From an uncultured bacterium (lineage in GTDB: Bacteria > Verrucomicrobiota > Kiritimatiellia > RFP12 > UBA3636): DNA of 64,000 nucleotides. The translations under genes were made by a program, and so were the position numbers. The notes beneath the pieces were generated by a model. That model had not been told where the DNA came from and made no database searches. It saw only the letters and a program-made list of their open reading frames with translations. Below are positions 5,244 to 49,067 of this stretch, piece by piece. The stretch covers positions 22,435 through 86,434 of the forward strand of contig CACWKU010000001.1 in the NCBI GenBank assembly GCA_902761575.1, given 5' to 3'. The stretch's first letter is position 1; every line of letters begins with the position of its first letter.

Positions 5244-5248
5244 GGGAT

Positions 5249-12748: not shown

Positions 12749-12803
12749 TTCGGCCAGTCCGCCGAAGCGGGCGCGGCGCGACGCCTCGGTTCGGGCGCCC
12801 CGG

Positions 12804-14384: not shown

Positions 14385-14443
14385 GGCTGTCGATTCGCGG
14401 CTTCTCCGGCGCGACCGCCGGGCGGTCGCGTCGAACGGAACCC

Positions 14444-14523
14444 GATTTTACCCAAGCTCCGGCCGCAAGGCAAACGCGAGCGGCGGCGGCGCTGTTGCCG
14501 TGCGCGGGGCGGTCTGCTAGCAT
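14444..14523 (+). promoter_or_regulatory. plus-strand variant: GATTTTACCCAAG element with a TAGCAT hexamer 9 nt before the ATG of the tandem esterase gene (spacing 71, not 51)
   Basis: Element at 14444-14456. TAGCAT at 14518-14523. ATG at 14533. Confidence 0.3.
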
Positions 14524-14532
14524 CCCCCCGCC

Positions 14533-16236
14533 ATGAGCACGATGAAACCCTTCGATCCCGCCGTCGCGGAGCGCCAGCCGGTCTGGCCCGCCGGAGAGAT
14601 GCCCGACCGCCAGCCCCACCAGATCGCCGCGATGACCGACGAGGCGGAAGCCCCCGGCTTCGACCCCGCCGCGCACACGGAGCCCTTCCTCGACTGGTAT
14701 CCGCCGCCCGCGAACCCCATCGGAGCCTGCGCGATCCTCGTCTCCGGCGGCGCCTACCAGAACTGCTGCGACGTGGGCCTGATCAAGGAGTGGCGCGAGC
14801 GCTTCGAGGCGCTCGGCTGCCAGTGCGTGAACTTCGTCTACCGCACGCCGTGGGCGCGCGGGATGGCGATCTACAAGACCGCGTGGGAGGACGCCCGCCG
14901 CGCCGTCCGCCTCGTGCGCTCGCAGGCCGCCGCGCGCGGCTTCGACCCGGAGCGCATCGTCACGGTCTCGATGTCCGCCGGCTCGCACCTCTCGCTGCTC
15001 CTCGCGACGGCGTCGCAGACGAAGGTCTACGAGCCCGTCGACGCGCTCGACGAGATTCCCTGCCACGTGAACGCCGCCGTCGCCTTCGCGCCGGCCGGGA
15101 TGCTCTCCGACGGCCCGATGTGCCCGAACGAGCGCGACGGCGACGGCCTCGACATCGAGCTCGACCCCGCCTTCGCGTTCGACGCGAAGACGCCGCCGGT
15201 CTTCCTCTCGCACGGCGGCGCCGACGCGTACTCGACGTTCAACTCGACGCGCATCTACCGCCGCCTGCGCGCGGCGGGCGTCCCGGCCGAGCTGCACATC
15301 CATCCCGACAAGCCGCACGGCATGTTCGGCCTCGAGCGCGGCGTCGAGTTCCTGCGCCAGATCGGCTTCCTCGGCCCGCTCGGGCCCGAGGTGCCGATCC
15401 TCGAGCGGTTCGCGTCCGACGACGCGCGCGACGGCGCCGCGGAGGCCGCGCCGATCTGGCCGGAGGGGCGCATGCCCCACCCGCAGGCGGACCAGTGCGA
15501 GCCGATCCTCGAGTGGCACCTCCCGAAGAAGCGCACGACCGACGCCATCCAGATCGTCTGGAGCGGCGGCGCCTACCTCGGCAACGACCCGGACGGCTTC
15601 GAGGTCGCGCCCGCGCGGCGCTACCTGAACGGGAAGGGCATGGCCGTCGTCACGGTCCGCTACCGCACGCCGCGCCCCTCCCCTCCCCTCGCCAAGCACG
15701 TCGCGGCGTGGCAGGACGTCCAGCGCGCGGTCCGGCTCGTCCGCGCCGGCGCCGCGGCGCGCGGCCTCGACCCGGACCGCATCGGCGTGATGGGCAGCTC
15801 CGCCGGCGGGCACCTGGCGCTGCTGGCCGCGACCGGCTCGCGCCACCGCACCTACCTTCCGGTCGACGAGACCGACGCCCTACCCTGCACCGTGCAGTGG
15901 TGCGTTGCGATCTACCCGGCCTACACGATCGAGGGCACCTACGACAACGGGACACCCGACGGCTCCAACGACCCGGCGCTGCGCCTCGCCCCGGAGCTGC
16001 CGTTCGACCCCGACACGCCGCCGATCCTCTTCGTGCACGGCGACGCGGACGAACACCCCGCCACGGCATCCGTCGCGACGTGGGAGCAGCTGCGCCGCAT
16101 GGGCGTCCAGGGCGCGGTGCACACGCTCGCCAGGCGCGGCCACTGCTTCTACTTCGCCGCCGCCCCCGGCACCGGCTCCTACACCTTCCTCGACCGGGTC
16201 TGGGAGTTCCTGACGGACAAAGGCTTCAACAAGTAG
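14533..16236 (+). CDS. tandem-duplicated alpha/beta-hydrolase (esterase/lipase) protein, two GxSxG domains, no signal peptide
   Basis: Track ORF. Nucleophile elbows SMSAGSH and GSSAGGH. Each half ends with an HGxADxxV/HP motif. Confidence 0.65.
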   Translation: MSTMKPFDPAVAERQPVWPAGEMPDRQPHQIAAMTDEAEAPGFDPAAHTEPFLDWYPPPANPIGACAILVSGGAYQNCCDVGLIKEWRERFEALGCQCVNFVYRTPWARGMAIYKTAWEDARRAVRLVRSQAAARGFDPERIVTVSMSAGSHLSLLLATASQTKVYEPVDALDEIPCHVNAAVAFAPAGMLSDGPMCPNERDGDGLDIELDPAFAFDAKTPPVFLSHGGADAYSTFNSTRIYRRLRAAGVPAELHIHPDKPHGMFGLERGVEFLRQIGFLGPLGPEVPILERFASDDARDGAAEAAPIWPEGRMPHPQADQCEPILEWHLPKKRTTDAIQIVWSGGAYLGNDPDGFEVAPARRYLNGKGMAVVTVRYRTPRPSPPLAKHVAAWQDVQRAVRLVRAGAAARGLDPDRIGVMGSSAGGHLALLAATGSRHRTYLPVDETDALPCTVQWCVAIYPAYTIEGTYDNGTPDGSNDPALRLAPELPFDPDTPPILFVHGDADEHPATASVATWEQLRRMGVQGAVHTLARRGHCFYFAAAPGTGSYTFLDRVWEFLTDKGFNK

Positions 16237-17158
16237 CCCGAAGCGGGAACCCGGCCGACTCGCGCAGGAGCGCGGTGATGCGCGCGGAGACGGCGTCCTC
16301 CGGCGCGCGGAGGCGCAGGACGCGCGCGTTGCCCGCCGGATCGGGCGCGAAGGGCGTGGAGAGGTCCGGCGCCACGCGGACGCGCCCCGGCTCGCCAAGC
16401 CCGTAGCACTCGTTCTCGCCGTGGACCGCGAGGTCGACGGTGACCGGGTCCCAGCTCGGGCGCGTCATCCCGGGGCCGCAGTAGCGCCGGAACGCCTCGG
16501 CGAGCGGATGCGCGGCGCAGTCCGGCGGCAGGCCGGAGAGGTCGGTGACCACCTTCTCGCCGCTCTCGAACCCGACGAAGACGATCGGGCCGTCCCACGC
16601 GTCGAGGAAGCGGCGCGTGGCCTCCGGGCGTTCGCGGACGTTGGTCTCCGCGTAGCCCGCGCACCGTCCGAAGCCGCCCGCCATCGCCCAGACGGCGCGC
16701 ACCTTGCGTCGGAAGAGCGCGGGGTCCTCCGCGAGGACCTCGTCGAGCGTGTTGAAGAAGCCGATCGAGATCACGTCGACGGAGCCGTCCGCCGCCTCCG
16801 CGAAGACGCGGCGGTAGAGCTCGCGCGCGGCGCACGACGTGGCGGGGTGCGCACCCCGCCACAATGCCGCGAGCGCGGCGAGATACGGGGACTCGTTGCC
16901 GCTCGGCGGAGGCGGGTCGTCCGTGACGCCGACGGGGACGTCCTGCAGGCCCCACGCGGCGAGGACCGCCTTCACCGCGGGCGCGGCGAGCGGCGTCTCG
17001 ACGTTGCACGAGACGCCGCCGATGCGGAACGCGCCGGCGTGGCGGCGCGACTCGGCGCAAAGCAGCGCGAGCGCGGCGACGTCGTCGACGTCGCCGCAGA
17101 AGTCCGTCTCGAGAACGACGGTCGCGCCCGTGCGGGCGGCGAGGGGCTCGGGCGTCAT
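16226..17158 (-). CDS. nucleoside hydrolase (inosine/uridine-preferring family)
   Basis: Start MTPEPLAARTGATVVLETDFCGDVDDVAALALL carries the DxDxxxDD aspartate cluster. ATGA overlap with the upstream CDS stop at 17155-17158. Confidence 0.7.
   Translation of the reverse strand: MTPEPLAARTGATVVLETDFCGDVDDVAALALLCAESRRHAGAFRIGGVSCNVETPLAAPAVKAVLAAWGLQDVPVGVTDDPPPPSGNESPYLAALAALWRGAHPATSCAARELYRRVFAEAADGSVDVISIGFFNTLDEVLAEDPALFRRKVRAVWAMAGGFGRCAGYAETNVRERPEATRRFLDAWDGPIVFVGFESGEKVVTDLSGLPPDCAAHPLAEAFRRYCGPGMTRPSWDPVTVDLAVHGENECYGLGEPGRVRVAPDLSTPFAPDPAGNARVLRLRAPEDAVSARITALLRESAGFPLRATC
16839..16862. repeat. perfect 24-nt palindrome GTGGCGGGGTGCGCACCCCGCCAC inside the nucleoside hydrolase CDS (encodes WRGAHPAT)
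   Basis: Exact palindrome. In-frame translation LWRGAHPATS. Confidence 0.85.
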
Positions 17159-19524
17159 CGCAGAACCAGGATGGTCGGGGGGTCGCCGTAGTGTTCGAAG
17201 CACCCGACGTCGGGGCCGCCGCCGAAGTCGCGTGGCCGCTTGCCGAGGAAGTCGCGCGCGCCGGCCATCCAGTCGCAGAGAACGCCGGCATCCCTCAGCG
17301 GCGACTTCGCGCGGGGAGACCAGTCTCCCTTGTCCGGCTTCGCGAAACGGACGCCCCTTTCGTCGCAGGCCGCCGTGATCCGCGCGGACGCGCCCGACGG
17401 ATCGCGCGCGAGGACCTCCGCGACGGCGTTGGCGCTTCCGCCCTCGACGACCGTGCTCGCGATCCGGACCACGTTGGTCAGGGACGGGCAGTTGTCGACG
17501 GGGGACTCGCACCAGTAGAGGCCGGGCGCGCCCCTGTACTTCCGGCCCCAGGGCCAGCCGTCGGTCTTCGGGAGGTTGTCCCAGAACACGCAGTTGGTGA
17601 TCGCGGGGACCGACGAGTCGTTCTGGAAGTAGACGAGGCCTCCGACGTTGCGGACGAAGGTGCAGTTCGCGAGGGCGGGGAAGCTGCCCAGCTTGAACGG
17701 GCACCGGTTGTCGACGAAGAGCGTGCTGGTGATCTTGGCGACGGACGCGTCCGGCGACCGGAAGAAGGACGGCAGTTGGCTTCCGCTCGACGAGGTGTTG
17801 ATCGTCGTCGCGGTGTCCGAAACCACGCATCGGTCGAGCCGGGCGCGGCCGTAGAAGAGCCCGGCGTTCGAGGAATCGAGCACGTTGCCGGCGATCGTGC
17901 AGGCAACGAGGCGGACGGCTCCGTTCGGGCAGTCGCCGTTGTTGGAGCCGAACGTCATTCCGGCCAGCCCGCCGCCGTCCGAGCGGAGCGTCTGGTTCCG
18001 GAAGACGCAGTTCGTAACGGTCGTGTGGCTCGTCGCGGCGACGGATGTCTGCCCCCGGCTGGCGGTCCGCTCGACGTAGCAGGCGTCGAACGCCGAATTC
18101 TCGATCCAGAGCGAACCGTAGATCGCGCCGCCTGCGTTCCACATATCGGTCCAGGACGTTCCGCACCGGACGAACTCGCATCCGTCGACGATGCCGTATT
18201 CGGACCGCGCGTCGAAGTCCGTGTGCGTTTCGTCGGGGGCGTAGATCGCGCCGCCGAAGCGCGCCGTGCAGTCGACGAAATCGCAGTCGCGGATGGTCGC
18301 CGTGTTGACCGCCGCCGAACCGTCGAGCCGGATCGCGCCGCCCTTGTCCGAGCTGCCGTTCTTGAAGGTGACGCCCCGGACGGTGAAGCCGGACGCGGAC
18401 ACCCGGAGCAGGTTGGCGGACGAATCGCCGTCGAGGATCGTCTTGCCCTTGCCCTCGCGCGAGACGACCGTCAGGTTCGCCGCGGTGACGTCGATCGCCG
18501 ACGTCGCCGTGTAGATGCCGCGGTTCACGACGACCGTCGCGCCGTTGGTCGCGCCCTCGATCTCCGCCTTGAGCCGGGCGAAGTCCCCGACCGTCGCGAA
18601 GATCTCGAAGGAAACGCCCGCCGGCAGAGAGGTCTTGCCCTTGTCGCTTTCGATCGTGACCGTGCAGACGTAGTCGCCGTCGGCGAGGTTCGGGATGGCG
18701 AACTCGGCCGTCTCGCCGGTCTGGTCGCGGAGGACAGTCACCGGATCGCCGCCGTTCAGGCTGTACGAGACGGAATACTTCGTCGCGGGGTTCCCGTCCA
18801 CGTCCGTGCCCATCCCGACGTCCGCGAGCGCGATGGTCGCCGTCCGGCGGAGCGTGGAGGCGGACAGGGAGCCGATCGTCGGATGGGAGCCCGAGATGAT
18901 CTTGCGGACCTGGACCGCGTTGAAGAAGGCGGGTGCGCCCTCGTATTCGAACGTGAACGACTCGGTCCCGTTCTCGGCCGTGAACGTTCCGACGAGGGAG
19001 CCTCCGTACTGGAAGAAATAGCCTTGCGGCCGGGCGGAACACGAATGGTCCGGAGCCCAGACTTCGGTGCCGGCGGCGCCGGTGTTGGAGACGTCCGTGC
19101 AGTGGAGAATCAACTGCACGGCGTAGGTGGCTCCCGGCGTGAGCTTCTTGAGCTGAAGTTCGTGGTCGCCGACGCTCGACCACCATCCGTGCGACAGCAG
19201 GTTGGAGTAGGCGCCCGAAACACCCGGGGGAGGGACGTTCTCGTCCCCGTGCCAATGCCACTCGCCCGAAAAGCCGAAATCGGGGCATCCGGCGACGTCC
19301 TGCCGCCCGACGAACGGAACGCCGTTGACCGCGTTGGTGACGGCGGCGCCGCCGTTCGCCTGGCACCAGGCGTACGCAAGCGTTCCGTTCGTGATGATCG
19401 AATTGCCGGACTGGCTCATCGTGACCTCCTGCCACGTGACGTACGTCGCGGCGCCGGCGACGGGAACGAACAGAGATCCCGAGAGGATGGCGATCAAAAG
19501 TGTCAGAAGGGTCTTGGATTTCAT
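17155..19524 (-). CDS. secreted protein: N-terminal malectin-like domain, Ig-like domain, right-handed parallel beta-helix (pectate-lyase fold) C-terminal region
   Basis: Start MKSKTLLTLLIAILSGSLFVPVAGA at 19522-19524. Motifs ...HGWWSS...AVQLI...FNAVQVRKI, then beta-helix repeats (DGDSSANLLRVSASGFTVRGVTFKNG...). Confidence 0.65.
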   Translation of the reverse strand: MKSKTLLTLLIAILSGSLFVPVAGAATYVTWQEVTMSQSGNSIITNGTLAYAWCQANGGAAVTNAVNGVPFVGRQDVAGCPDFGFSGEWHWHGDENVPPPGVSGAYSNLLSHGWWSSVGDHELQLKKLTPGATYAVQLILHCTDVSNTGAAGTEVWAPDHSCSARPQGYFFQYGGSLVGTFTAENGTESFTFEYEGAPAFFNAVQVRKIISGSHPTIGSLSASTLRRTATIALADVGMGTDVDGNPATKYSVSYSLNGGDPVTVLRDQTGETAEFAIPNLADGDYVCTVTIESDKGKTSLPAGVSFEIFATVGDFARLKAEIEGATNGATVVVNRGIYTATSAIDVTAANLTVVSREGKGKTILDGDSSANLLRVSASGFTVRGVTFKNGSSDKGGAIRLDGSAAVNTATIRDCDFVDCTARFGGAIYAPDETHTDFDARSEYGIVDGCEFVRCGTSWTDMWNAGGAIYGSLWIENSAFDACYVERTASRGQTSVAATSHTTVTNCVFRNQTLRSDGGGLAGMTFGSNNGDCPNGAVRLVACTIAGNVLDSSNAGLFYGRARLDRCVVSDTATTINTSSSGSQLPSFFRSPDASVAKITSTLFVDNRCPFKLGSFPALANCTFVRNVGGLVYFQNDSSVPAITNCVFWDNLPKTDGWPWGRKYRGAPGLYWCESPVDNCPSLTNVVRIASTVVEGGSANAVAEVLARDPSGASARITAACDERGVRFAKPDKGDWSPRAKSPLRDAGVLCDWMAGARDFLGKRPRDFGGGPDVGCFEHYGDPPTILVLR

Positions 19525-21947: not shown

Positions 21948-23765
21948 TCAGGTTCTTTCGACGGTAATCCGCGCGGAGAACGCGAGGCCGGCGCGGAGGG
22001 GCGCCGTCAGGTAGGCGTAGAGGAATCCCGCGATCGGGGAAAAGGCGCGGTCGCCGCGGTCGGTCTTCGCAAGTTCGAACGGCAGGTCGGATTCGACCGT
22101 GACGACCGCGTCGCCCCGCCGGATTCGGACGCGCCCGTCCGCGAGTTCGACGCGGTCGGCGGCCGTCGCGACGAGCGGAAGCACGAAGCGCGCGTCCGCC
22201 TCGCACATGCCGACGATCGAGAACGCGTTCCCGTCCACGCGCGAAACCAGTTCGTAGGCCGCGCCGCGCGTCCCGTCGCGCCCCGTCAGACGGCCGCGCG
22301 CGCGGCATTCGACGGCGCCCGCGGCGGATGTTGACTCCATCTCGGCGTCCGCGTCCCGCGCGGAGCTCGAAGAATCGTTCGCCTCGATGCGCGGCATCAT
22401 CGAAAGCACCGTCCGCTCGTGGCGGAGGTCCTGCAGGTTGCGGGCCTCGACGATCGCGTAGTCCGCCATCGTGCCGACGACGAGCGGCCCGACCGCTTCG
22501 TGCCAGACCATCGACGGACCGCCGCCGGAAACCCGGAGCCCGGTCATGCCCTGCGCGAAGGAGTCTCCGCCCGCGAACGTGACGCGCCAGGGACCGACGG
22601 CGGCGAGCGCCACGCCGATCGAGGGGAAGGACTTGAGTCCGTAGGCGCGTTCGCGCGGCAGGGGCGCATCGGCGCCCCGCTCGGGGATCGAATCGTCCAG
22701 GAGGACGTCGACGACGGACTTCGCGTGCGTGAACGAATGGTGGATGCATGCCGGCTCGCCGGCCGCCTCGTACTGCACGCCGCCCGCCAGAAGGCCGGAG
22801 GCGTTCGTGCAGCGCTCGTACAGGGCGAGGTGGAGCCCCATCGCCCTCGCGGCCCAGGGCACGCCCGACTTGGCGAGGGCGCCGAGGATCGGCAGGAGGC
22901 CGTCCGACGTGCGGCTGCCGTAGTACGTCCACTTCGCGCTCCGGCTCCCGAAGGAGTCGTCCACGCCGCCGTCGGGTAGGAGGAACTCGGCATGCACGGC
23001 CGCCGAGGCGAGGACGGCGTCCTTCATCCGCCCGTCGCCGCAGAGTTCGGCATACGCGAACAGAGACGGCAGCGACTCCTCCAGATTGTAGCCGAGGTCG
23101 ACGTACGCGTGCCCGCGCGGCGAGCGGTGCGACATCGGCGCGCCTTCGCCCGTGAAAAGTCCGTCCGGAAGGAACGACTTCATCACGCGGTCGGCCATCG
23201 ACCGGGCCAGAGCCGTCCTGCCGGCGTCGCCCAGTACGCGCCCGGCGAGCGCCATCGCCTCGCAGAAGGACGCCGGATAGTTCACGTTGGTGGACTCCAC
23301 GAACGACTCGTCGAACCGCTCGACGACGAAGTCCGTGTCCCGCTCGAAGAGCGCGCTCCAGCGCACGCGCAGGTCCCGCGGCAGCCGGTCGCCGAAACGG
23401 AGAAGCGTCTTGCCGAGGGCGATCTGCGCGAACACGGTGATGGCCCACCACTGGCTCTGGAAGTCGTTGTAGAGGCCGCCGTCCTCCCGGCGCATCGCGG
23501 CCTCCGTCCAGTCGACGGCCCGCTCCGCCGCCGCGAGGTACTTCTCGTCCCCCGTGCGCGTCCAGCGGTAGGCCAGCGGATAGGCGAGGTCGCCGACGCG
23601 CCCGTGGAGGACGCCGCACGCGGGGCACGCGATCGCGCCGTCGAGCATTGGGTCGCCCGTTCCCGCGATCTGCCGCGCGAGGAGGGCGTCGCACCACCGG
23701 GCGACGAGCCCCTCGGCGGCCTCCCGGCTCCAGGACGAAGACGTTGAAAGCGTGTTGGATTCCAT
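21948..23765 (-). CDS. hypothetical ~605-aa protein, possibly an alpha/alpha-toroid glycoside hydrolase or lyase-like enzyme (family not recognised)
   Basis: Start MESNTLSTSSSWSREAAEGLVARW at 23763-23765, 20 nt after the upstream stop. The long track ORF 21948..27086 is a read-through across the upstream gene. Confidence 0.4.
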   Translation of the reverse strand: MESNTLSTSSSWSREAAEGLVARWCDALLARQIAGTGDPMLDGAIACPACGVLHGRVGDLAYPLAYRWTRTGDEKYLAAAERAVDWTEAAMRREDGGLYNDFQSQWWAITVFAQIALGKTLLRFGDRLPRDLRVRWSALFERDTDFVVERFDESFVESTNVNYPASFCEAMALAGRVLGDAGRTALARSMADRVMKSFLPDGLFTGEGAPMSHRSPRGHAYVDLGYNLEESLPSLFAYAELCGDGRMKDAVLASAAVHAEFLLPDGGVDDSFGSRSAKWTYYGSRTSDGLLPILGALAKSGVPWAARAMGLHLALYERCTNASGLLAGGVQYEAAGEPACIHHSFTHAKSVVDVLLDDSIPERGADAPLPRERAYGLKSFPSIGVALAAVGPWRVTFAGGDSFAQGMTGLRVSGGGPSMVWHEAVGPLVVGTMADYAIVEARNLQDLRHERTVLSMMPRIEANDSSSSARDADAEMESTSAAGAVECRARGRLTGRDGTRGAAYELVSRVDGNAFSIVGMCEADARFVLPLVATAADRVELADGRVRIRRGDAVVTVESDLPFELAKTDRGDRAFSPIAGFLYAYLTAPLRAGLAFSARITVERT

Positions 23766-23785: not shown

Positions 23786-26700
23786 CTACCGGAGGAACTC
23801 CTCCGCGTCGTCGCCGTAGTAGAACAGATGCGTCGAGTGGAGGGCGGCGTCGAACGAGAACACGTCCGTGTCGCGGGCGACGACGCGGCGGCCGACCAGG
23901 TCGACGACGGTCGTCCTGCGCGGCAGGCGGACGGTCTTCGCGCCCGCCGTGCGCGCATGCAGCGTGAACAGCGCGTCGTTCGCCTCGATCGGATCGTCCG
24001 AGTCGCACCAGACGTGCACGCCGGCCTTCGCGGCGAGCGACCGGATGAAGGGGATGTCGAGCTGCCACGCGCCCGAGAAGTACGACGGCGAGCCGTCGAC
24101 CGTCGAGACCGTCAGACCCGGCTTGCCGTTCGCGTAGACGCCCAGCACCTCGTCGGCCGCGACCGGGGCGAACGCCTGCGCGACCTGTGCGTCCGGCATG
24201 CCCATCCAGCGGCCGTCGCTCTCCATCTTCACGCCGGCCACGGTCGGCTCCGCGATGCGCTCGAACCCGATGCCCGTGAGGGCCTTCATGTCCGCGAGCG
24301 AATTCCCCCTGCTCCACCCGGGCGCGTAGAGCCAGAGGATCGTCGCGCCGCGCGCGCGGATCCGCTCCACCGCCTCGCGGACGGAGTCGTCGAAGGTCAG
24401 CTGGTTCAGGAAGACGTACAGCCTGTAGTCGCCGGCGTACCGGCCGAGGTCCTCCGCCAGCAGGAAGTCGACGGGCGTTCCGGAGCGCGCGAACTTCGTG
24501 TGCAGGGCGCCGAAGATCTCGCCGTTGTAGACCGCGAGCCTCTCCTCGGCGCGCTTCACGGTGCCGTCGGGGGCGTACTCCTGCGTCCAGCGGCCCGTCC
24601 GGGCGAACGGGCGCCGGTTGAGCGACGGCGTCGCCACGATCGACCGCTCGCTCGCGACGAGCGCCACCTCGGCATGGCGGCCGACCCGGCGCCCGAGGCA
24701 GAAGCGCATCGCGTCGAGCACGTCGCGTCCGACCTTCGCGCATTCGGGGGAATCGCAGTCGACGCCCGTCGCGAGCGCGTAGAAGTACGGCCAGCCGCCG
24801 CGGCACATCGTGGCGGCCGCGTCGCGCAGCAGCACCGCGGCGGTCTGCTCGGGGGTCAGGGTCTGCTTGAAGCCGTAGAAGTTCGGCCGGATCCGGTTGT
24901 GCGTGCGCGTGTCGTCCTCGTTGACGGCCAGGATGCCGGCGGCGTTCAGCGTGGCGGACGGCTTCATGTCGCCGCAGGCGTCGCCGATCCGGCGCTCGCC
25001 GTAGCTCTGGGGCGAAAGCAGGAAGTCGATCCGCCCGTCGTTCCCGTCCAGCAGCGTCTTGAGGGCGAAGTGCCCGCGCCACTGGTCGAACCCGTTCGCG
25101 TTCAGGTAGAACGTGTAGCCGTAGTAGGTCCCCACGAGCTTGGTGCGCCCGAGCGACCGCAGCACGTCCTTCGCGTGCCCGCACGCCTCCAGCGCGTCCT
25201 TCGCGATGATCCACGAGTTGTAGTCCATGTAGGCGATCGCGTTCCGATGCCGCTCCCCGTCCCAGAGGACGTCCAGGGGCGAATCGAGCGCCTGCCGCTC
25301 GGCGAGGTCGGGGACGTGCGGGTCCGCGAGCCCGGGATACCGTTCGGCGGCGAACGCCGCGAAGGCCTTCTTGTTGACGTCCGAGAAGTCGCGCACGTGG
25401 CCGGGCTTCGCGTCCCATCCCAGCCATTCCACCGTCACGCCCGAGTTCACGCGGTAGCCGATGATCCGGTTGGCGTAGGGGGACGATTCCAGGCGGCGGA
25501 TCGCCCGCTCCGTCATCTCCTTGATCTCGTCGAGCCCGAGGCGGGAGGCATAGCTCCAGCTGAAGCGGCTGGCCGGGACGATGTCCCCGGTTTCGTCGGC
25601 GGACATCTCTTGCGGGTACTTCTGCGCGAAGTCCGCCGGCGGATAGACCGAGAGGTCCCAGACGAAATACGCGTCGGGATTCGCCCGGCGGTATTTCTCG
25701 GCGATGCGGTCGAACGAGGAGAAGTCGTACGTACCGAGCCGCGGATGCCAGTCCACGCAATTGTTGTAGACCGTGACCGCGGTGAGCGGCATGTCGCTGT
25801 GGCGCGGCAGGCGGTCCGGGCGCCGCAGGTACTGGACGCCGCCCCACAGGAGCGGGAACGGCTTGTCGTCCAGATGGACCGTGGGGACGCCCGACACCGG
25901 CTTCACCTCGGCCCGGACGGGACGGTCGAATCCCGGAATCTCGGACGCCTTGCGCGCGGAGATCCGCAGGCGCCCTCCGGGCCATCCTCCCCCGTCGCAG
26001 CAGACGCCGGAGGACGAGAGCCGGATCTCGTATTCGCCCGAATGGCAGTAGAGGGGCGTCTCGAACGGAATCTCCAGCCGCCAGCGGCCGTCCGCGAGGC
26101 GGACGACGTTCGAGCTCCCCAGCGACAGCGTCTCGTCCCACCACGTGGCGTCGTTGCGGCGCAGCGCGAGGTCGGCCTCGAAGTCTCCTTCCGGCGGCGT
26201 CCCCTCGAACTCGTAGCGGAGCGTCGCCGTCTCGCCCGCCCGGACGCGCGGCGACTCGGGCCCGCCGCCGAGGAAGCGCTGCGGGCGGGCGAAGTCGCGG
26301 TAGACGAGGCGCGTGCAGCGCGGCGGCGCCGGCGGCGGGTCGGAGCAGACGACCCCCGTCCAGGCCCTTCCGTCCACGGACGACTCGAACGAGTCGTCGG
26401 TGTCGATGCGCTCCGTCGTTCCGTCGGCGTAGGCGACGAAGAGCTCCGCCAGCACGCCGCCGGGGTAGGGCCTGCGCACGCCGTACTCCATCCGGGCGTT
26501 GATCGTGTACTCCACGTCCAGCACGTTCTCCCCTTCGCGGAGCAGGGAGCGGACGTTCGCGGACGCCGGCACGCCGTCCGCCGCGCTGCGATCGTAGGCG
26601 GAGCGCATGGCGACGCTCCCGTTGAGGCTGAACGTGGCCATCGTGTCGCCGACGCCCTGGAGCCAGGCGTCCGCGGGCGCGGCCTTCAGCGCGAAGCGCC

Positions 26701-26947
26701 GGCGAAGCCGGTACTTCGGCTCGGGGTCGGCGCCGCCGGCGCGTCCTTCGGCGTCGGCGGCCGCGGAGACGAAGCGGCCCCCGAAGTACGGGCCCCGGAC
26801 GCTGCACGCCGGGTCGTTCGCGGCGTCGTAGAAGTGCGGCGTCACGTCGGGCCATTCGGGGGCGTCCAGTTTTCCCTCCCACGCCGGCCCGGCCATCGCC
26901 GCCGCCGCCGCGAAGACCGCCGCCATCGCCATTCTGTGAACGAACAT
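23786..26947 (-). CDS. secreted glycoside hydrolase, beta-galactosidase-like (GH42/GH35-type TIM barrel) with N-terminal beta-sandwich domains
   Basis: Start MFVHRMAMAAVFAAAAAMA at 26945-26947 (signal peptide). Central region resembles GH42-type beta-galactosidases by eye. Confidence 0.45.
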   Translation of the reverse strand: MFVHRMAMAAVFAAAAAMAGPAWEGKLDAPEWPDVTPHFYDAANDPACSVRGPYFGGRFVSAAADAEGRAGGADPEPKYRLRRRFALKAAPADAWLQGVGDTMATFSLNGSVAMRSAYDRSAADGVPASANVRSLLREGENVLDVEYTINARMEYGVRRPYPGGVLAELFVAYADGTTERIDTDDSFESSVDGRAWTGVVCSDPPPAPPRCTRLVYRDFARPQRFLGGGPESPRVRAGETATLRYEFEGTPPEGDFEADLALRRNDATWWDETLSLGSSNVVRLADGRWRLEIPFETPLYCHSGEYEIRLSSSGVCCDGGGWPGGRLRISARKASEIPGFDRPVRAEVKPVSGVPTVHLDDKPFPLLWGGVQYLRRPDRLPRHSDMPLTAVTVYNNCVDWHPRLGTYDFSSFDRIAEKYRRANPDAYFVWDLSVYPPADFAQKYPQEMSADETGDIVPASRFSWSYASRLGLDEIKEMTERAIRRLESSPYANRIIGYRVNSGVTVEWLGWDAKPGHVRDFSDVNKKAFAAFAAERYPGLADPHVPDLAERQALDSPLDVLWDGERHRNAIAYMDYNSWIIAKDALEACGHAKDVLRSLGRTKLVGTYYGYTFYLNANGFDQWRGHFALKTLLDGNDGRIDFLLSPQSYGERRIGDACGDMKPSATLNAAGILAVNEDDTRTHNRIRPNFYGFKQTLTPEQTAAVLLRDAAATMCRGGWPYFYALATGVDCDSPECAKVGRDVLDAMRFCLGRRVGRHAEVALVASERSIVATPSLNRRPFARTGRWTQEYAPDGTVKRAEERLAVYNGEIFGALHTKFARSGTPVDFLLAEDLGRYAGDYRLYVFLNQLTFDDSVREAVERIRARGATILWLYAPGWSRGNSLADMKALTGIGFERIAEPTVAGVKMESDGRWMGMPDAQVAQAFAPVAADEVLGVYANGKPGLTVSTVDGSPSYFSGAWQLDIPFIRSLAAKAGVHVWCDSDDPIEANDALFTLHARTAGAKTVRLPRRTTVVDLVGRRVVARDTDVFSFDAALHSTHLFYYGDDAEEFLR

Positions 26948-27035
26948 GACTTGACTTCTCCTTCTCGCCGCCGTTCGGGCGTCGCACGGACGGTCTCGCG
27001 GAACGGTCGCCCCCGCCCGCGCGCCACGAACCAGA

Positions 27036-27092
27036 ATGATAGAGGATTCCGGACGGCGGGACAAGGGATGAATCACGCAGATTCAAGTAAAA
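27036..27092 (-). promoter_or_regulatory. promoter of the beta-galactosidase-like gene: -10 TATCAT plus upstream TTTTACTTG element
   Basis: rc ATGATA at 27036-27041. Element CAAGTAAAA at 27084-27092. Confidence 0.5.
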
Positions 27093-27173: not shown

Positions 27174-30100
27174 CTATTCCGGCATGCGCACCCAGACCCG
27201 GAAGAAGCGGCTGTCGGCGTTCGGCGCGGTCCAGACCTCGTTCGTGAGGAAGGGCTTGCCCTCTATGGTGTAGACGCGCTTGGCGCCGAGGTCCGGATGC
27301 CAGGAGATCTCCGGCTCGTCGCCGGGCACGAGGATGTCCGCGAGGAAGCGCGAGAGCGCATCGAGCGGGTTCAGGCCCGCGACGAACTCCTCCCAGAGCG
27401 TGTCGCCCTTGCCCGACGGCAGCGGCTTCAGCGCCTCGTAGCCGCTGGTCGACCCGATGCCGTGGAAGTCGATCCACGCCTCCCATTCGCCCTTCGTCGC
27501 CTCCGGAATCCACTGCACGCAGTCGAGGAAGCCGCGGTCTTCGCCGTCGGCCATTCCGGAGTCCTTCGCGTAGGTCCAGCGCAGCGTGTGCGCCCCCTCC
27601 CCCTCGACGGCGAACGACGCCCGCTCCCACTTCGTCCGCCCGTCGAGACGCGCCTTCTCGACGCCGTCGACGAGAAACGCAAGGTGGTCCCAGTCGCGAT
27701 AGCCGCTGTCGTCGCGCTCGCACGAGGCGCGCCAGCGGAAATCGATCTGTCCCGGTCCTTCGACCGTCGTCTCGATCCAGCTTTCGCCGTTGTCGCCGGG
27801 CGACGCGGAGGTCGCGCGGTGGACGCCGTCCGCCGAGTCCTCGGTCGCCTCGGGAACCCACGGATCGTCGTCCCCGGTCGTGAAGGCGAGCTGCGGCATG
27901 TTGACCGCCGTCGCGAGCCCGAGCGTCGAGCCGAGCGCCGGAACGCCCGCCCCCGAACGGCCCGCGAGGTTCTCCGAGACAACGAAGTAGTAGTAGGTCT
28001 TCCCGGGCTCGACCGTCACGTCGGTCCACGAAAGGCCCTCCGTCGTCCCGAGCTCCTCCGCCGCCGCGAGGTCGGGCGACGTCCCGCGGCAGACGCGGTA
28101 GGAGTCCGCCGTCTCCACGGCGTCCCACGAGAGCGCGATGCCCGCGCCTTCCTGCGCCGCCGCGAGGCCGTCCGGCGCCTGCGCCACGTAGACATGGACG
28201 ATCGTCGCGGTCGCGACCTCGCTCGCCCAATCGCCGCGCACCACGGCGATCGCCTTCACCGTCGTCGTCTCAAGGATCGAAAACTTGACGGAAGTCGCGC
28301 TGTTCGTCGCCGGGTCGGAACCGTCCACCGTGTGGTAGATCTTCGCGTCCGGATCGGTGCACGTGAGCATCACCGACTGCGAGTTCTTGTTCGCGAACTG
28401 CGTTCCGTCCGGCGGATCGATGACGGGCGTCGCCGGTACGCCGTATTCGTAGCAGCCCATGTCCACCGCCGCGTGCGCGACGCGCGGATTGCCGGCGAGG
28501 TCCGTCTTCCCCGCCGCCCACGACGTGTCGCCCGCGTCGACGCACGGCGCCACCGCGCGCACGCGGTAGTCGCCGTTCGCCGCGTCGAAGAAGAGGTCCG
28601 CCGCCGACGCGACGATATTGCTAGTCCCGACGGTTTCCGTGTCGAGGCAGGAATAGTCGACGTTGCACGTCGCGGCATGGACTTCGGTTCCGACCGGTAC
28701 ATTCTCGACGAAATTGCCGACAATGACGCAGTTTGTCGCGACGCATTTTCCGATGGCGCATGCCCCCAGACTAATGGCGTTCGTATTCGCGGCAACGGTG
28801 CAGTTCGCAAGCGAACATTTGTAGGCGGCACTGGGTGCACAACCGCTGTGATCGTCGTTCCAGACGACATTGCCGGCAATCAGGCAGTTCTCCATGTCGG
28901 CTTCGTACGCCGCGCCCCATTTCCGGCTGACATTACCGGTCAAAATGCAGTTCTTCAATGTCGCAGTCAGAACGGCCGACCCCCCACCCGAACAGTATCC
29001 ATTACGGAACATGAATCCTTCCATTGTCACGAGCCCGCGGAGGGTTTCGTAGTAATAGGCGCTCGGATCCGTCGGCTGATACGCCGCCATCTGGATACAG
29101 CGCCGGAGCCCTTGACCGTCGATGATCGTCGTCGCGGGACCGTTTGCGCTTCGAATGCGCAGGTGTGCGCTTTTCCAGTTCACGATGGAACTGGAAGCCT
29201 GCGCATCGCCCGTATAGACGCCGTCCGCCACGACGATTTCGTCGCCGTCCGCCGCCCAGTCGATGGCATTCTGGATGGTCGCCTTCGCCGTTTCCCAGGA
29301 GAGGCCGTCGTTCGCATCGTCGCCCGTCGCCTGCGCGACGTATTGCGTCGCCGCCGCGTAGTGGGTGGCCCATTCGTAGCAACCCATGTCGGTCCCGACG
29401 CCGATCCACCGCGAGTGGCCATCGAGGTCGGTTCCAAGCTTGGCCTCGGTTGTCAGTCCGCCCGCGTCGATGCACGGCGAGCCCGCCGTGAGCCGGTAGT
29501 CGCCGTTCGCCGCGTCGACGAAGAGCGGATCGGCGTCGATGTTGCCCGAGCCGGAGACGGCCGAACCGAAGCAGGAATAGGTCGCGGTGGAATTGTAGAT
29601 ATCGTTTGCGGCTCCGCTCGTGTAGGCGTTTCCGTAGACGATGCAGGATTCGAGCGTGCAGAAGTCGCAACCGCCGCCGCCGGGCTTGCTGGAAGAACCG
29701 TAGACGGCCCGGTTGTCCACAATCGTGCACCGGACCGCATCGCAGCTGCCAAGTCCGCCGCCCGTCGTGGCGGCGACGATGTTGTTCGCCAGATTGTCCG
29801 CAATCAAGCAATCTTCCAGCCGGGAATTCATGGCGCCGCCCCCGCCGGCGGACGAAACGTTGTTGGAAACGATGCATCGAAAGGCAATGCTGCATTGAAG
29901 TCCCCCGCCGTAGCCGCGGAACGAAGGGTCGTCGTCTTTCCCGGCGTAGTTCCCCGTCACGATGCACGCTTCCAGAATTCCGCCGCGAACGCCGGCTCCG
30001 TGGTCGTTCCGGCCGTTCCGCAACGTAAAGCCGACAAGCGTCGTTTTCACGGCATCGGTCCTTTCGGCACCTAGCGTCGCGCAGCGGTTCGTGCCGCCGC

Positions 30101-33100
30101 CGTCGACGATGGTCTTCTCCGCGCCTTCGACGCTGCGGATGACGATGTCCTTGTTCCTTGCGACGAACGGTTCGTAGACGCCGTTCGTGACGAGGACCGT
30201 GTTGCCCGCGACGGTGCGGTCCGCCGCGTTCTGGATCGTCCGCAGCGCGTCGTCCCACGAACGCCCCGTGTTCTCGTCATCGCCGCGTTCCGCGTCGACG
30301 TACCAGACCGTTTCCGCGGGTTCCGGATCTTCGCAGACAAGACGGAAGCCGACGTCGCTGTATTTGGTAGAAGCGCCGTCTTGGATGCGAAAGGCCGAAC
30401 GGCAACGATTGGCCGCGAACTTCCATCCGCCGCCGCGCCTCGAACGATGCGTTCCGGAACCGGCCCCCGCGGGATTGACCGCGGGTCCGCCGTCCAATTC
30501 GGCATACCAGTCGAGGCACCATTCGTAAACGTTGCCGTGCATGTCGAAAAGGCCCCATCGGTTCGGAAGATAGGACCCGACCGCTGCATGGTGGTCGTTC
30601 CCCCGGTTGTCGACGTATCGTCCGAGTTCCGCCAGATTGGCGCTGTAGCCCTCCGCTGATTCCAGATTCTTTCCAGAGTTCAAGGAGGATTCTGTCCCCG
30701 CGCGGCAGGCATATTCCCACTGCGCTTCGGTCGGGAGGTCGAAGCCGTCCAGGCCCGTCTTCGCGCGGAGGACGCCGAGGAAGCTCGAAGCGTCCACGGC
30801 GCTGCTCGCCGGGAAGTTCGTTCCCGCGTCGTCGCCGCGGATCATGTCGTAGGAAACCGTCTCGATCGGGTGGGTTCCTCCGAGATTCTGCGCCACGTTC
30901 GTTCCCATCACGAGTTCCCATTGCTTCTGCGTCACCTCGAAAACGCCGGCGTAGAAGCCGCGCGAGAGCGTGACGCGGTGGAGCGTCTCGTTGTCCTGAC
31001 GGCCTAGCTCGTCCTCCGGGCTGCCCATCCAGAACGAGCCCTCCGGCACATTGCGGAGGACGAGTTTCGTCGTCTTGTATTCCTCGGTCCAGCCGCCCGC
31101 GGGAACGTCGGAGAGGTAGGAGACCGGATAGGAGGTCGCGTTCGTTCCACCCGAGAGGTCGACGACGAGGAAGCGGGTCTCGTCGACCGGATCGATGCCG
31201 AACGGATAGACGAACGTGCCCTCGTAGTTGTTCTTGCCGGTCACGCGGACGCCCGCCGTGCCGACGTCCACGTTGTCGACGTATTCGACGTCGTAGTTCT
31301 CCGCGCCGAGGATGTCCGGCCAGCCGTCGCGGATGTGGACCTCGGGCGTCTTCGGCGTTCCGTCCCACACCTGGTCCGGAACGACGCACATCATCGAGGG
31401 GTCGATCCGCTTCTTCCGGACGGTGAGCGTCGCGGCGTTCGTGACGGCGGGATAGCCCGGCGCCGTCGCGACGACCCAGACCGGATGCTCGCCCGCGTCC
31501 GTGAACGACGGCGCCTCCGCCGTGAACGGGCCTTCCGCGGAAAGACCGTAGAGAATCGTCGCCTCCGCGCCGGGGAAGTCCGCCGTCACGGAGAGCGCGT
31601 TCGGGCCGCCGTTGTAGACGACATCCGTCCCCTCGACCTTGAGCCACGACTCCGGTCCCGCCTCGTAGGCGCCGATGTCCACGTGCGCGCCCTGCACGCG
31701 CGCGTTGCCCCAGAGGTCGGAGTCGCTCACCGCGTTCGCGTCGCTTCCCGCGTCGATGCAGGGCGACGAACCGAGCAGGCGGAAGTCGCCGGCAGCCTCG
31801 TCCGCGAACTTCGGGAACGCGACGATGTTCCCTTCGCCCTCCTTCAGCGACGTGAGGCAGCAGTGGTCGAGCGTGCACGCCGCCACGTCCGCTGCGATGC
31901 CGCCCACCGTGTTCCCCGTCACGATGCAGTTGTAGACCTTGCAGTCGTAGAGCCCTCCGGCGGGAGCCCCGGCAACGGCCTCGTTCCCGATGACCGTGCA
32001 GTTATAGAGGTCGCACTGGTAGGCACCTCCCGCGGCGGCGGTTCCGTCGGACGACAAAGACGCGTTTCCGAGAATCAGGCAGTTTACGAGTTTACAGCCG
32101 CCCGCGCCGCCGACCGTTTTCTCCGCATTCAGGCATTTCGTGGTCGTGCAATCCTGGATGACGCAGTTTTCCACGATACCGTGCGAAACTCCTCCTAGGT
32201 TCGTGAACAAGCCGTTTGTAATCGTAAAACCGACGAGCGTCGCAACGCGATCCGCCGTCCTTCCGTCGAGAGAAGCCGAAAGTTTTGCGCAACGGTATTT
32301 GCCTTCTCCGTCGAGAATCGTCTTTTCCGGTCCGTTCACACTTTTGATCAGGAGCTTGCCGCTGGTAGCATGGCAGTCGAGAACCATGTTTCCCGAGACC
32401 CTTTTGTATGTTCCGTCGTTCACGAGAACCGTGTCCCCGTCGATCGCCTCGTCCACCGTGGATTGGATGGACTTCTTCGCCGCGCTCCAGGAGAGACCGT
32501 CGTTCGAGTCGTTTCCGGAGGCGGCGTCCACGTGCCACGTCACGGGTTCACGGTATTCGTAGCAGCCGGCGTCCACGATTCCGTTCACGATGCGCCGACT
32601 TCCGCGAAGATCGTAATTCGTCGGAACCAATTCGTTCGTACCCGCGTCGACGCACGGCGATTCCGGGCGGAGACGGTAGACGCCGGCCGCGGCGTCGACG
32701 AACGGCGATTCGGAAAGGACGCCGTTGTTCGAGCCAGGAAGAACAACTTCGGCAAACGAGTTTGTGGCGGAAAAACTGGAGGAAACAAGCGATGCGGATC
32801 CTGTTTCGTTGCCGAACACGACGCAGTTGGCCAGGACGGAATCCGAAAACACGGCGCCAGATCCGTCAAAACCGCCATTGTTCGAAAACGTGCAATTGAA
32901 AGCGGTCGAATTCCGGACGAGGCATTGCAAAGCCCTGTTTCCGACGACCAGGCAATTGTCCATTCGGACTGTGTGGAGGACGACTTTGGAGTTCAAAGAC
33001 GTTCCCTTCACAATGCACTTCCTCAGTTTGGTCCAAGCTACTCCTCCGGTGTCTTGATGCAATCCGTTCTGCAACGTGAATCCGTCGAAAAGCAGGCAAT

Positions 33101-33467
33101 GGTCCATCCAGTCATTTTGATGGGCCGTGTTCGTTCCCTTGGCGACGCGGCGCTGACCATCGGCGTCGATGATCGTGACGAGAGGGCCGTCCGTGCTGCG
33201 GACCGTAGCAGAACGCCCATTGGAATTATAGACGGCACCAACGGAGTCCGCCGTCTCCTTGTAGGTTCCCGGGCCGACGAGGATCAAGTCGCCGTCGGAG
33301 CAGGAAGTCACCGCCTTTTGGATCGTTTTGAAGGGCTTTGCGGAAGTGCCTTCGTTCGAGTCGGAACCCGAAGAGGCGGAAACGTACCAGTTCTTCGCGA
33401 ACCCGGAGGGCGCGAAACCGGCGAGAAGAAGAAGGAACGAGACTGCGGGGAGGCGCGAGCGGAGCAT
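27174..33467 (-). CDS. 2097-aa secreted protein: four right-handed parallel beta-helix modules, internal FGE-sulfatase (SUMF1-like) domain, Ig/Fn3-like domains, unknown C-terminal domain
   Basis: Track ORF with signal peptide MLRSRLPAVSFLLLLAGFAPSGFA. Four module starts have the form W(Y/H)V(D/S)A..G(D/N)D.N.G(T/L)SW..A..(T/S)IQ.A.D.A..GD.(I/V)LV, each ending ...FVDAA.GDYRL...SPC(I/V)DAG. The FGE-like stretch includes HGNVYEWCLDWY...RGGGW. Confidence 0.8.
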   Translation of the reverse strand: MLRSRLPAVSFLLLLAGFAPSGFAKNWYVSASSGSDSNEGTSAKPFKTIQKAVTSCSDGDLILVGPGTYKETADSVGAVYNSNGRSATVRSTDGPLVTIIDADGQRRVAKGTNTAHQNDWMDHCLLFDGFTLQNGLHQDTGGVAWTKLRKCIVKGTSLNSKVVLHTVRMDNCLVVGNRALQCLVRNSTAFNCTFSNNGGFDGSGAVFSDSVLANCVVFGNETGSASLVSSSFSATNSFAEVVLPGSNNGVLSESPFVDAAAGVYRLRPESPCVDAGTNELVPTNYDLRGSRRIVNGIVDAGCYEYREPVTWHVDAASGNDSNDGLSWSAAKKSIQSTVDEAIDGDTVLVNDGTYKRVSGNMVLDCHATSGKLLIKSVNGPEKTILDGEGKYRCAKLSASLDGRTADRVATLVGFTITNGLFTNLGGVSHGIVENCVIQDCTTTKCLNAEKTVGGAGGCKLVNCLILGNASLSSDGTAAAGGAYQCDLYNCTVIGNEAVAGAPAGGLYDCKVYNCIVTGNTVGGIAADVAACTLDHCCLTSLKEGEGNIVAFPKFADEAAGDFRLLGSSPCIDAGSDANAVSDSDLWGNARVQGAHVDIGAYEAGPESWLKVEGTDVVYNGGPNALSVTADFPGAEATILYGLSAEGPFTAEAPSFTDAGEHPVWVVATAPGYPAVTNAATLTVRKKRIDPSMMCVVPDQVWDGTPKTPEVHIRDGWPDILGAENYDVEYVDNVDVGTAGVRVTGKNNYEGTFVYPFGIDPVDETRFLVVDLSGGTNATSYPVSYLSDVPAGGWTEEYKTTKLVLRNVPEGSFWMGSPEDELGRQDNETLHRVTLSRGFYAGVFEVTQKQWELVMGTNVAQNLGGTHPIETVSYDMIRGDDAGTNFPASSAVDASSFLGVLRAKTGLDGFDLPTEAQWEYACRAGTESSLNSGKNLESAEGYSANLAELGRYVDNRGNDHHAAVGSYLPNRWGLFDMHGNVYEWCLDWYAELDGGPAVNPAGAGSGTHRSRRGGGWKFAANRCRSAFRIQDGASTKYSDVGFRLVCEDPEPAETVWYVDAERGDDENTGRSWDDALRTIQNAADRTVAGNTVLVTNGVYEPFVARNKDIVIRSVEGAEKTIVDGGGTNRCATLGAERTDAVKTTLVGFTLRNGRNDHGAGVRGGILEACIVTGNYAGKDDDPSFRGYGGGLQCSIAFRCIVSNNVSSAGGGGAMNSRLEDCLIADNLANNIVAATTGGGLGSCDAVRCTIVDNRAVYGSSSKPGGGGCDFCTLESCIVYGNAYTSGAANDIYNSTATYSCFGSAVSGSGNIDADPLFVDAANGDYRLTAGSPCIDAGGLTTEAKLGTDLDGHSRWIGVGTDMGCYEWATHYAAATQYVAQATGDDANDGLSWETAKATIQNAIDWAADGDEIVVADGVYTGDAQASSSIVNWKSAHLRIRSANGPATTIIDGQGLRRCIQMAAYQPTDPSAYYYETLRGLVTMEGFMFRNGYCSGGGSAVLTATLKNCILTGNVSRKWGAAYEADMENCLIAGNVVWNDDHSGCAPSAAYKCSLANCTVAANTNAISLGACAIGKCVATNCVIVGNFVENVPVGTEVHAATCNVDYSCLDTETVGTSNIVASAADLFFDAANGDYRVRAVAPCVDAGDTSWAAGKTDLAGNPRVAHAAVDMGCYEYGVPATPVIDPPDGTQFANKNSQSVMLTCTDPDAKIYHTVDGSDPATNSATSVKFSILETTTVKAIAVVRGDWASEVATATIVHVYVAQAPDGLAAAQEGAGIALSWDAVETADSYRVCRGTSPDLAAAEELGTTEGLSWTDVTVEPGKTYYYFVVSENLAGRSGAGVPALGSTLGLATAVNMPQLAFTTGDDDPWVPEATEDSADGVHRATSASPGDNGESWIETTVEGPGQIDFRWRASCERDDSGYRDWDHLAFLVDGVEKARLDGRTKWERASFAVEGEGAHTLRWTYAKDSGMADGEDRGFLDCVQWIPEATKGEWEAWIDFHGIGSTSGYEALKPLPSGKGDTLWEEFVAGLNPLDALSRFLADILVPGDEPEISWHPDLGAKRVYTIEGKPFLTNEVWTAPNADSRFFRVWVRMPE

Positions 33468-49059: not shown

Positions 49060-49067
49060 TCGCCACC

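Follow-up and report, generated by a model that had tools for sequence, protein, structure and literature searches.

A TvpA-like module of the FGE fold with a lineage-variable loop, probably ligand-binding, inside a giant beta-helix protein of an uncultured bacterium

Within a 64,000-nucleotide stretch of DNA from an uncultured bacterium (contig CACWKU010000001.1, positions 22,435 to 86,434; hereafter the window, whose coordinates are used unless another locus is named), the minus-strand open reading frame (ORF) 27174..33467 encodes a giant protein of 2097 amino acids (aa). Between the second and third of its four beta-helix modules lies a domain (aa 764-1045) that has the fold of formylglycine-generating enzyme (FGE) and is like TvpA of Treponema denticola. 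In our judgement, this domain is probably a non-enzymatic, ligand-binding module of the TvpA-like C-type-lectin/FGE fold in a secreted protein, built from a constant core and a loop that varies between lineages, on which no diversity-generating retroelement (DGR) currently acts. Lectin-type use of the FGE fold without catalysis is familiar; what is new is its domain context inside a giant beta-helix protein. The initial annotation of the window had recorded the ORF and its length correctly but left its strand unstated, and had suggested that the domain separating modules 2 and 3 is an FGE-fold binding module without catalysis, a suggestion that the alignments and the structure model described below support.

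The Pfam family PF03781 (FGE-sulfatase) matches aa 807-1044 (30336-31049) with an E-value of 3.3e-35 and a score of 122 bits against a cutoff of 23.3, which falls inside the interval 30330-31100 initially proposed for the domain. The family consensus reaches further N-terminally, to 'YLV.DLSGG..A.SYPVSYL...P.GGWTDEYKTTKLVLR', and the cassette takes in aa 764-1045 when the N-terminal beta extension common to it and its stand-alone relatives is included. An AlphaFold2 model of aa 787-1050 has a predicted local distance difference test score (pLDDT) of 96.2 and a predicted template modelling score (pTM) of 0.93. Its nearest solved structure is TvpA (2Y3C; Foldseek E 3e-21, template modelling (TM) score 0.75), PvdO is the second-best structural match, and human and bacterial FGE structures are matched at E-values of 1e-14 to 1e-17 with TM scores of ~0.68. 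A sequence search of the Protein Data Bank also placed TvpA 2Y3C at the top, followed by PvdO, with human FGE lower. The NCBIfam equivalog cutoffs for PvdO (99.3 vs 500), GldK (74.4 vs 350) and EgtB (24.7 vs 360) were not reached, and Pfam found no DinB domain, which would be expected for an EgtB-type site, in the ORF.

FGEs rely on a pair of copper-binding active-site cysteines to generate formylglycine, and the Cu(I) site needs both of them (bioRxiv 10.1101/2021.05.21.445229). The domain has only four cysteines (C921, C984, C1022 and C1045). HMMER pairwise alignment, MAFFT and a profile hidden Markov model (HMM) of 101 sequences agree in placing F1017 opposite human C336 and C1022 opposite human C341. 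This is the arrangement that had been read by eye, with a single cysteine of the pair kept in 'NRCRS' and F/A opposite the other, and none of the alignments finds both cysteines intact. The Cu(I)-binding pair is broken, because the site needs two cysteines and the equivalent of C336 is Phe, and as judged from sequence the domain is predicted to be unable to make formylglycine. Further aligned pairs are C235 with C921, S333 with G1014, W299 with Y981, C346 with S1024 and R349 with R1027. Human N259, D273, N293, G296 and E300, the first site lying in a poorly aligned loop, are opposite N944, D958, D975, G978 and E982; at what we take to be the human Ca2+-site ligands, the aligned residues N944, D975, G978 and E982 are largely kept. 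The segment from 'GGSW' to 'R.A.R' is three residues shorter than in true FGEs according to both HMMER and the profile HMM. This gap raised the alternative that C1022 corresponds to C346 and pairs with C921 (the equivalent of human C235), which was rejected: the profile HMM and MAFFT put C1022 under C341 and S1024 under C346, a C921-C1022 pairing shows no covariation, and C921 and C984 stay where C1022 is lost.

A search with the domain only returned thousands of relatives, and column statistics were taken from the closest 120, which are stand-alone proteins of 270-460 aa from Lentisphaerae and Kiritimatiellae, 50-61% identical to the query and ending in the domain. Of these 120, 118 have C1022 and only two have C-x4-C; position 1017 is hypervariable in relatives (Y/S/N/D/F/G). 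Across the query and its full-length orthologs the C1022 column reads CCCAAVCCQ, with A, A, V and Q in its place in four of nine. By this pattern, C1022 is best read as a scaffold residue of the TvpA-like branch and no relic of catalysis. Compared with the FGEs of human (SUMF1), Streptomyces, Thermomonospora and Mycobacterium tuberculosis, the query keeps the fold, the motifs 'LPTEAEWEY(A/S)C' and 'GN(V/A).EW' and the residue aligned with C341, but it has Phe for C336, Gly for S333 and Tyr for W299, a shorter loop, and a place within a giant protein without sulfatase clients in the window. Non-catalytic FGE-fold domains are well known, including SUMF2, PvdO, PorK, Tsi3 and TvpA. The query scores far below the PvdO, GldK and EgtB cutoffs, and we know of no case among SUMF2/pFGE, PvdO, PorK/GldK and the type VI secretion system immunity protein Tsi3 with a hypervariable C-terminal loop pattern or a position inside a beta-helix protein.

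In the most numerous class of DGR targets, an FGE-sulfatase domain carries the variable region (VR) at its C-terminal end; the type example, TvpA, has no FGE activity and is presumed to be a ligand-binding protein (Wu et al., 2018; PMC5758913). The last ~30 residues of the 120 relatives form a scaffold of W1015, A1019, C1022-R-S-A, R1027, P1032 and G1040-F-R, each at least 85% conserved, and the columns between these residues are mostly Y/S/N/D/G. In this stand-alone clade, with kinship ignored, K/E/Q/M/W account for 6% at the columns of the variable stretch against 23% at the other variable columns of the domain. This depletion is supportive only; binding sites, too, are typically enriched in Tyr, Ser, Asn, Asp and Gly.

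A second copy of the 3′ end of the domain was sought in a DGR scan of 80 viral-contig and 79 metagenome loci with relatives. At six independent loci, whose relatives are 32-43% identical to the query, pairs of VR and template repeat (TR) were found in which 15-22 of 17-24 mismatches lie at template adenines, and this is the DGR signature. Three of these (L020, L058 and L081) were aligned per residue, and their VRs are co-linear with the variable stretch of the query: the L020 template 'RGGSW NNN P QN CRSA N R NNN TP DNR NNN I GFR' stands against the query 'RGGGW KFA A NR CRSA F R IQD GA STK YSD V GFR'. F1017 falls on a hypervariable site templated by AAC in L020 and L081, and C1022 lies within the adenine-free 'CRSA' scaffold, which is the same in VR and TR of the proven DGRs. 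FGE-type genes at L016, L017 and L018 (from an uncultured bacterium, the planctomycete Schlesneria and a Thiodictyon) have 30 scaffold nucleotides identical to the query segment at the same spacing; the scaffold of this branch seems to be conserved at the codon level across phyla.

Nine full-length orthologs, 56-84% identical to the query, all keep the FGE-type module. In each of them, identity to the query is 33-44% over the VR-equivalent (aa 987-1039), irrespective of whether it is 57% or 87% over the remaining protein, and in the two closest pairs no 50-aa window is less conserved than the variable stretch. In Nei-Gojobori analysis, the constant part of the cassette (aa 764-986) has a nonsynonymous divergence (dN) of 0.11-0.17 and a ratio to synonymous divergence (dN/dS) of 0.11-0.17, the most constrained region of the protein, and the dN of the VR-equivalent (0.47-1.28) is 4-8 times as high. 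The dS of the constant part is 0.8-1.3 in all pairs, including P0001/P0003, with 0.8 in the cassette and 0.08 in the upstream 763 codons; the cassette shows this silent-site divergence also in pairs whose upstream codons are no more than 0.08-0.2 apart. A DGR does not explain such values in the constant part, since it rewrites only ~100-135 bp. The combination of high cassette dS and low upstream dS instead points to anciently diverged alleles that have been exchanged by recombination. Codons 1151-1210 in module 3 are identical to those of P0002 and strongly diverged from those of P0003. These patterns suggest that the giant gene is a mosaic in which old module alleles have been swapped by recombination.

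No second copy of the FGE-domain DNA was found in the 64 kb by blastn (word size 7), by repeat families or by a pattern scan. A weak blastn match at 58958-59012, considered as a second FGE gene, proved to be a chance match inside a GH3-type glycosidase. No gene of the window matches the reverse-transcriptase (RT) family RVT in Pfam, and the RT ORFs of the proven DGR loci have no tblastn match in it. Neither RT nor TR was found within 7-10 kb of the orthologs, of three stand-alone relatives, of two other giant FGE-module proteins or of the closest metagenome relatives (at least 48% identity). A scan of the GTDB representative genomes, among which the source organism is not included, for the scaffold-codon pattern returned no TR; its three matches are unrelated FGE-type genes without a second copy. 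Among the orthologs with DNA, third codon positions are the most diverged in the variable stretch (0.52-0.74), adenine-free scaffold codons are altered (C1022 to A/V/Q, R1023 to A/T) and indels are present. Adenine mutagenesis can produce neither the changes at C1022 and R1023 nor the indels. In relatives clustered at >90% identity the VR is stable, with no VR-restricted variation in four clusters; VR-restricted variation in the pair P0124/P0259 is suggestive only. We rejected a local DGR (no TR-like copy and no RT in the window), a DGR common to the orthologs (the codon-position pattern and Nei-Gojobori analysis) and a DGR beside the closest relatives (the stand-alone, other giant-protein and metagenome loci), and a DGR probably does not act locally on the giant gene. 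The query resembles TvpA and the CLec1/FGE-sulfatase class of DGR targets in its FGE-type C-type-lectin fold and in having, at the C-terminal end of the domain, a variable region in which variable sites alternate with an invariant scaffold. It differs from them in that its module is internal, between beta-helix modules, where theirs is C-terminal, in the lack of a TR or RT in the 64 kb, in its ordinary nucleotide divergence in place of adenine mutagenesis, and in the partial erosion of the scaffold in its orthologs.

The DGR link could still be live at a distance: the internal module would be a remote target, with RT, accessory gene and TR more than ~30 kb away, aa ~1008-1042 would be rewritten by adenine mutagenesis, and specificity would be actively diversified. 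We regard this as unlikely. The TvpA-like domain, the co-linearity of its variable stretch with proven VRs and the DGR linkage of six relatives are all in keeping with it, as is the depletion of K/E/Q/M/W in the closest stand-alone clade (6% vs 23%), which AAY templates would give; the literature describes DGR targets lying over 100 kb from the RT, internal VRs and targets of several kb (PMC5758913). It is opposed by the absence of RT and TR in the window and near the orthologs and relatives, by third codon positions that are diverged and not preserved, by the changed adenine-free scaffold codons and the indels, and by K/E/Q/M/W contents of up to 16% at the orthologs' variable columns; the identical protein in several samples and the stable VR in the >90% clusters also speak against it. 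A decaying relic, in which an ancestral stand-alone DGR target was captured, its DGR was lost and the stretch drifts under relaxed constraint in a module that serves mainly as a structural spacer, is distinctly unlikely. It would account for a scaffold that is eroded in the orthologs and intact in the stand-alone relatives, for the intermediate K/E/Q/M/W content and for the lack of a DGR nearby, and orphaned DGR targets have been described in Treponema strains without an RT (PMC4891356). Yet the constant part of the cassette is under the strongest constraint of the protein, the W, RSA.R, P and GFR scaffold positions are mostly still kept, dN/dS of the stretch is below 1 where measurable, and the module persists in every one of the nine full-length orthologs as well as in many further giant proteins; constraint, scaffold and retention therefore argue for a maintained function.

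That function could in principle be enzymatic, as a one-cysteine FGE or another FGE-fold activity (a PvdO-like oxidoreductase or an EgtB-like sulfoxide synthase) acting on a beta-helix module substrate. The fold is common to enzymes, PvdO is the second-best structural match, and the residues opposite the presumed human Ca2+ sites are largely kept. Nevertheless, an enzyme is very improbable here: one of the two cysteines that the Cu(I) site needs (bioRxiv 10.1101/2021.05.21.445229) is Phe at a position that is hypervariable in relatives, the other is lost in four of nine orthologs, the PvdO, GldK and EgtB scores are far below their cutoffs and the DinB domain of an EgtB-type site is missing; no sulfatases lie nearby, and a hypervariable active-site region is unlike an enzyme. 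Several points weigh against the ligand-binding module that we favour. The loop is no unique outlier in its variability, which parts of beta-helix modules 3 and 4 almost equal. The loop dS is saturated, so that positive selection is not formally demonstrable, and its dN/dS is 0.16-0.66 where computable. The partly eroded scaffold of the orthologs could mean relaxed constraint and not tuned specificity, the equivalence of C1022 and C341 comes from sequence and profile alignment, and some other enzymatic activity of the FGE fold may be compatible with the sequence. We infer the binding function, its ligand (a glycan or a cell surface) and the secretion and localisation of the protein from the features described here.

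The rigid fold core (aa 764-986) is held constant, and on the ligand-binding reading the C-terminal loop (aa ~987-1042), almost wholly different between lineages, would form an exposed binding surface. Because the loop differs almost completely between lineages, the protein of each lineage probably recognises a different ligand. The loop lies where true FGEs have their two Cu(I)-binding cysteines and DGR targets their programmed VR. Its variability would represent changing specificity, maintained by ordinary mutation and by recombination of old alleles. The gene lies within a polysaccharide-breakdown locus, and a gut or rumen bacterium of the Kiritimatiellae type is its probable host. A modelled sandwich of the carbohydrate-binding module (CBM)/MAM type in the same protein (Table 1) would fit a glycan- or surface-binding role. 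It is doubtful that the giant protein carries a TvpA-like variable module diversified in trans by a far DGR or, without a DGR, by the exchange of anciently diverged cassette alleles.

Table 1. Features of the giant protein and positions of their coding sequence in the window.
Feature	Residues (aa)	Window position	Strand	Basis
Whole ORF, giant multi-module protein, predicted secreted	1-2097	27174..33467	minus	ORF list; GC content at third codon positions (GC3)
Predicted Sec signal peptide, MLRSRLPAVSFLLLLAGFAPSGFA, cut before K	1-25	33393..33467	minus	read from sequence
Beta-helix module 1, choice-of-anchor-Q motif at end	26-300	32568..33392	minus	Pfam/NCBIfam: DUF1565 and Pel9A-like beta-helix matches (aa 25-80), NF041518 stretch; start motif at aa 27; D17 copy 32641-32713
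Beta-helix module 2	310-603	31659..32540	minus	start motif at aa 311; end motif at aa 554-574; NF041518 best stretch (aa 561-603); D17 copy 31747-31819
Beta-rich linker	604-763	31179..31658	minus	position between module 2 and FGE cassette
FGE-sulfatase/C-type-lectin-fold cassette	764-1045	30333..31178	minus	PF03781; family consensus; AlphaFold2 model; TvpA match
Variable-region equivalent, RSRRGGGWKFAANRCRSAFRIQDGASTKYSDVGFR, predicted ligand-contact loop, evolves fastest within the domain	1008-1042	30342..30446	minus	column statistics; VR/TR mapping; dN
Codon F1017, opposite human catalytic C336	1017	30417..30419	minus	alignments
Codon C1022, opposite human C341, scaffold Cys of 'CRSA'	1022	30402..30404	minus	alignments
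Beta-helix module 3	1055-1370	29358..30305	minus	start motif at aa 1055; weak NosD-family match (aa 1078-1156); D17 copy 29461-29533
Beta-helix module 4	1375-1680	28428..29345	minus	start motif at aa 1375; end motif at aa 1626-1646; weak NosD and DUF5123 matches (Pfam); D17 copy 28531-28603
CHB_HEX_C_1/Fn3_assoc Ig-like domain	1694-1756	28200..28388	minus	PF13290 E 7e-12; PF13287 E 1e-9
Ig/Fn3-like domain	1770-1860	27888..28160	minus	weak match to Ig_J_second, E 0.001
CBM/MAM-type jelly-roll beta-sandwich	1860-1990	27498..27890	minus	structure model
C-terminal ~100-aa lineage-specific domain, ends RFFRVWVRMPE	1995-2097	27177..27485	minus	recurrence in giant proteins

The window is GC-rich (about 0.61-0.75 per 2-kb window), and GC3 in the frame of the ORF is 0.81. 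Four metagenome contigs, which come from several samples, encode an identical 2097-aa protein. The N-terminus has a basic n-region, then a hydrophobic core and small residues ahead of the cut site, and the giant protein is predicted to be exported via this Sec signal peptide. The four beta-helix modules bear out the initial description: each starts with the motif W(Y/H)V(D/S)A..G(D/N)D.N.G(T/L)SW, and the ends with the motif FVDAA.GDYRL..SPC.DAG are the four stretches of NF041518 ('choice-of-anchor Q'; 113.6 bits against an NCBIfam cutoff of 25) and equally the DNA repeat family D17. Strongly kept among the orthologs (0.77-0.94), the linker has no Pfam match at E<=1 in a search that covered aa 604-786, and by its appearance it probably comprises two Ig-like domains. 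Downstream of module 4, the chitobiase-type Ig domain that had been proposed is present as CHB_HEX_C_1/Fn3_assoc, whereas the Fn3 domain proposed with it matches only a weak Ig-like domain at aa ~1770-1860 and is plausible but not firmly shown. The C-terminal 238 aa have no Pfam match, in line with the ~250-aa domain that was initially left unassigned, but this region of ~240 aa is modelled confidently (pLDDT 91) as a CBM/MAM-type beta-sandwich followed by a small terminal domain.

The jelly-roll unit of aa 1860-1990 occurs in up to eight tandem copies in giant proteins such as P0109. The ~100-aa domain that follows, which ends '...RFF(R/K)V.V.MP(E)' and has no Pfam family, is preceded by the motif 'PVPVPY.WLD.Y...W.(E/D)(Y/F)VAG(T/L)(D/N)PT(N/D)'. 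It forms the extreme C-terminus of otherwise unlike giant proteins from Kiritimatiellae and Lentisphaerae (P0017, P0037-40, P0067, P0075 and P0086), and it may be an undescribed sorting or anchoring signal.

Named homologs of the giant protein come from Kiritimatiellae and Lentisphaerae, and two of them (P0037 and P0058) are named choice-of-anchor Q proteins by NCBI. The query shares with the giant choice-of-anchor Q beta-helix proteins of Kiritimatiellae, Lentisphaerae and Verrucomicrobia the modular build, with its four NF041518 stretches, and the varied C-terminal ends, but it differs in the FGE-type module inserted between modules 2 and 3, which most of the listed relatives lack; the 1370-aa paralogs P0011-P0015 have none. 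Many other giant proteins of Kiritimatiellae and Lentisphaerae join PF03781 with InlB-B-repeat, peptidase C1 or lectin modules. The exact module combination was not found in the literature searched, which agrees with the initial view that the architecture is undescribed. In other respects that view has to be tempered: FGE-sulfatase domains fused to many other modules, internal VRs and targets of up to ~2700 aa are documented (PMC5758913), FGE-sulfatase modules with many fusion partners are also described elsewhere (PMC7159879), and the architecture recurs in at least nine orthologs. The closest stand-alone relatives (L008 8001-9218, L011 8001-9029 and P0121-P0240) widely bear the label 'formylglycine-generating enzyme required for sulfatase activity', and 118 of the 120 are without C-x4-C. 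Some stand-alone relatives lie in neighbourhoods that resemble mobile elements or defence systems, with FRG, PDDEXK, integrase, PriCT_2 and CoiA genes.

Pfam analysis of the window genes found no sulfatase, FGE or anaerobic sulfatase-maturating enzyme (anSME) gene, which answers the check for neighbouring sulfatases that the initial annotation had put forward. The neighbours include several GDSL esterases with Ig repeats, an alpha-galactosidase with NPCBM, a phytase-like esterase and a feruloyl-esterase-type hydrolase, together with a further beta-helix protein, an ulvan-lyase-like protein, a melibiase-like protein, a GH3-type glycosidase, an ABC sugar transporter fusion, an AraC regulator and nucleotide-sugar enzymes. 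The giant gene is followed immediately downstream, at 21948-23765 and 23786-27082, by genes for a ~1050-aa protein without a Pfam family and for the ulvan-lyase-like protein (PF25840/PF25841), and the downstream gene order is the same on three independent contigs. Positions 1-19000 hold very large minus-strand GDSL esterase genes with common Ig-like repeat units of ~300 nt (e.g., 676-1284, 6210-6818, 7407-7706, 8997-9296 and 18584-18883) and long paralogous segments of 74-84% identity (1315-2893 vs 10974-12540), which suggest that a family of multi-domain carbohydrate esterases has expanded locally. An AAA_14/DUF4143 ATPase gene lies at 49035-50348, ~16 kb from the giant gene; such genes are also found near giant FGE-module proteins at L099 (7203-8429 and 26789-27101) and L100 (1-254), a co-occurrence that may be coincidence.

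The domain and its thousands of relatives in Lentisphaerae and Kiritimatiellae, without the catalytic pair, look like binding modules. Recognising them as such prevents misannotation under the name of a formylglycine-generating enzyme required for sulfatase activity, by which databases call these proteins, and this counts when the sulfatase-maturation capacity of sulfated-glycan degraders is inferred from genomes. The giant protein also provides a concrete case of a DGR-type variable scaffold that has become part of a giant modular surface protein and is still diverging without a nearby retroelement, which bears on the spread of such scaffolds and on their fate after DGR loss. If true, either a remote DGR or a system in which cassette alleles recombine would make the finding more notable: diversification in trans or by allele exchange would amount to something like antigenic variation in the binding specificity of a surface protein that faces polysaccharides. 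If the loop sets ligand specificity, the orthologs would form a natural panel for mapping the attachment targets of abundant gut and rumen bacteria.

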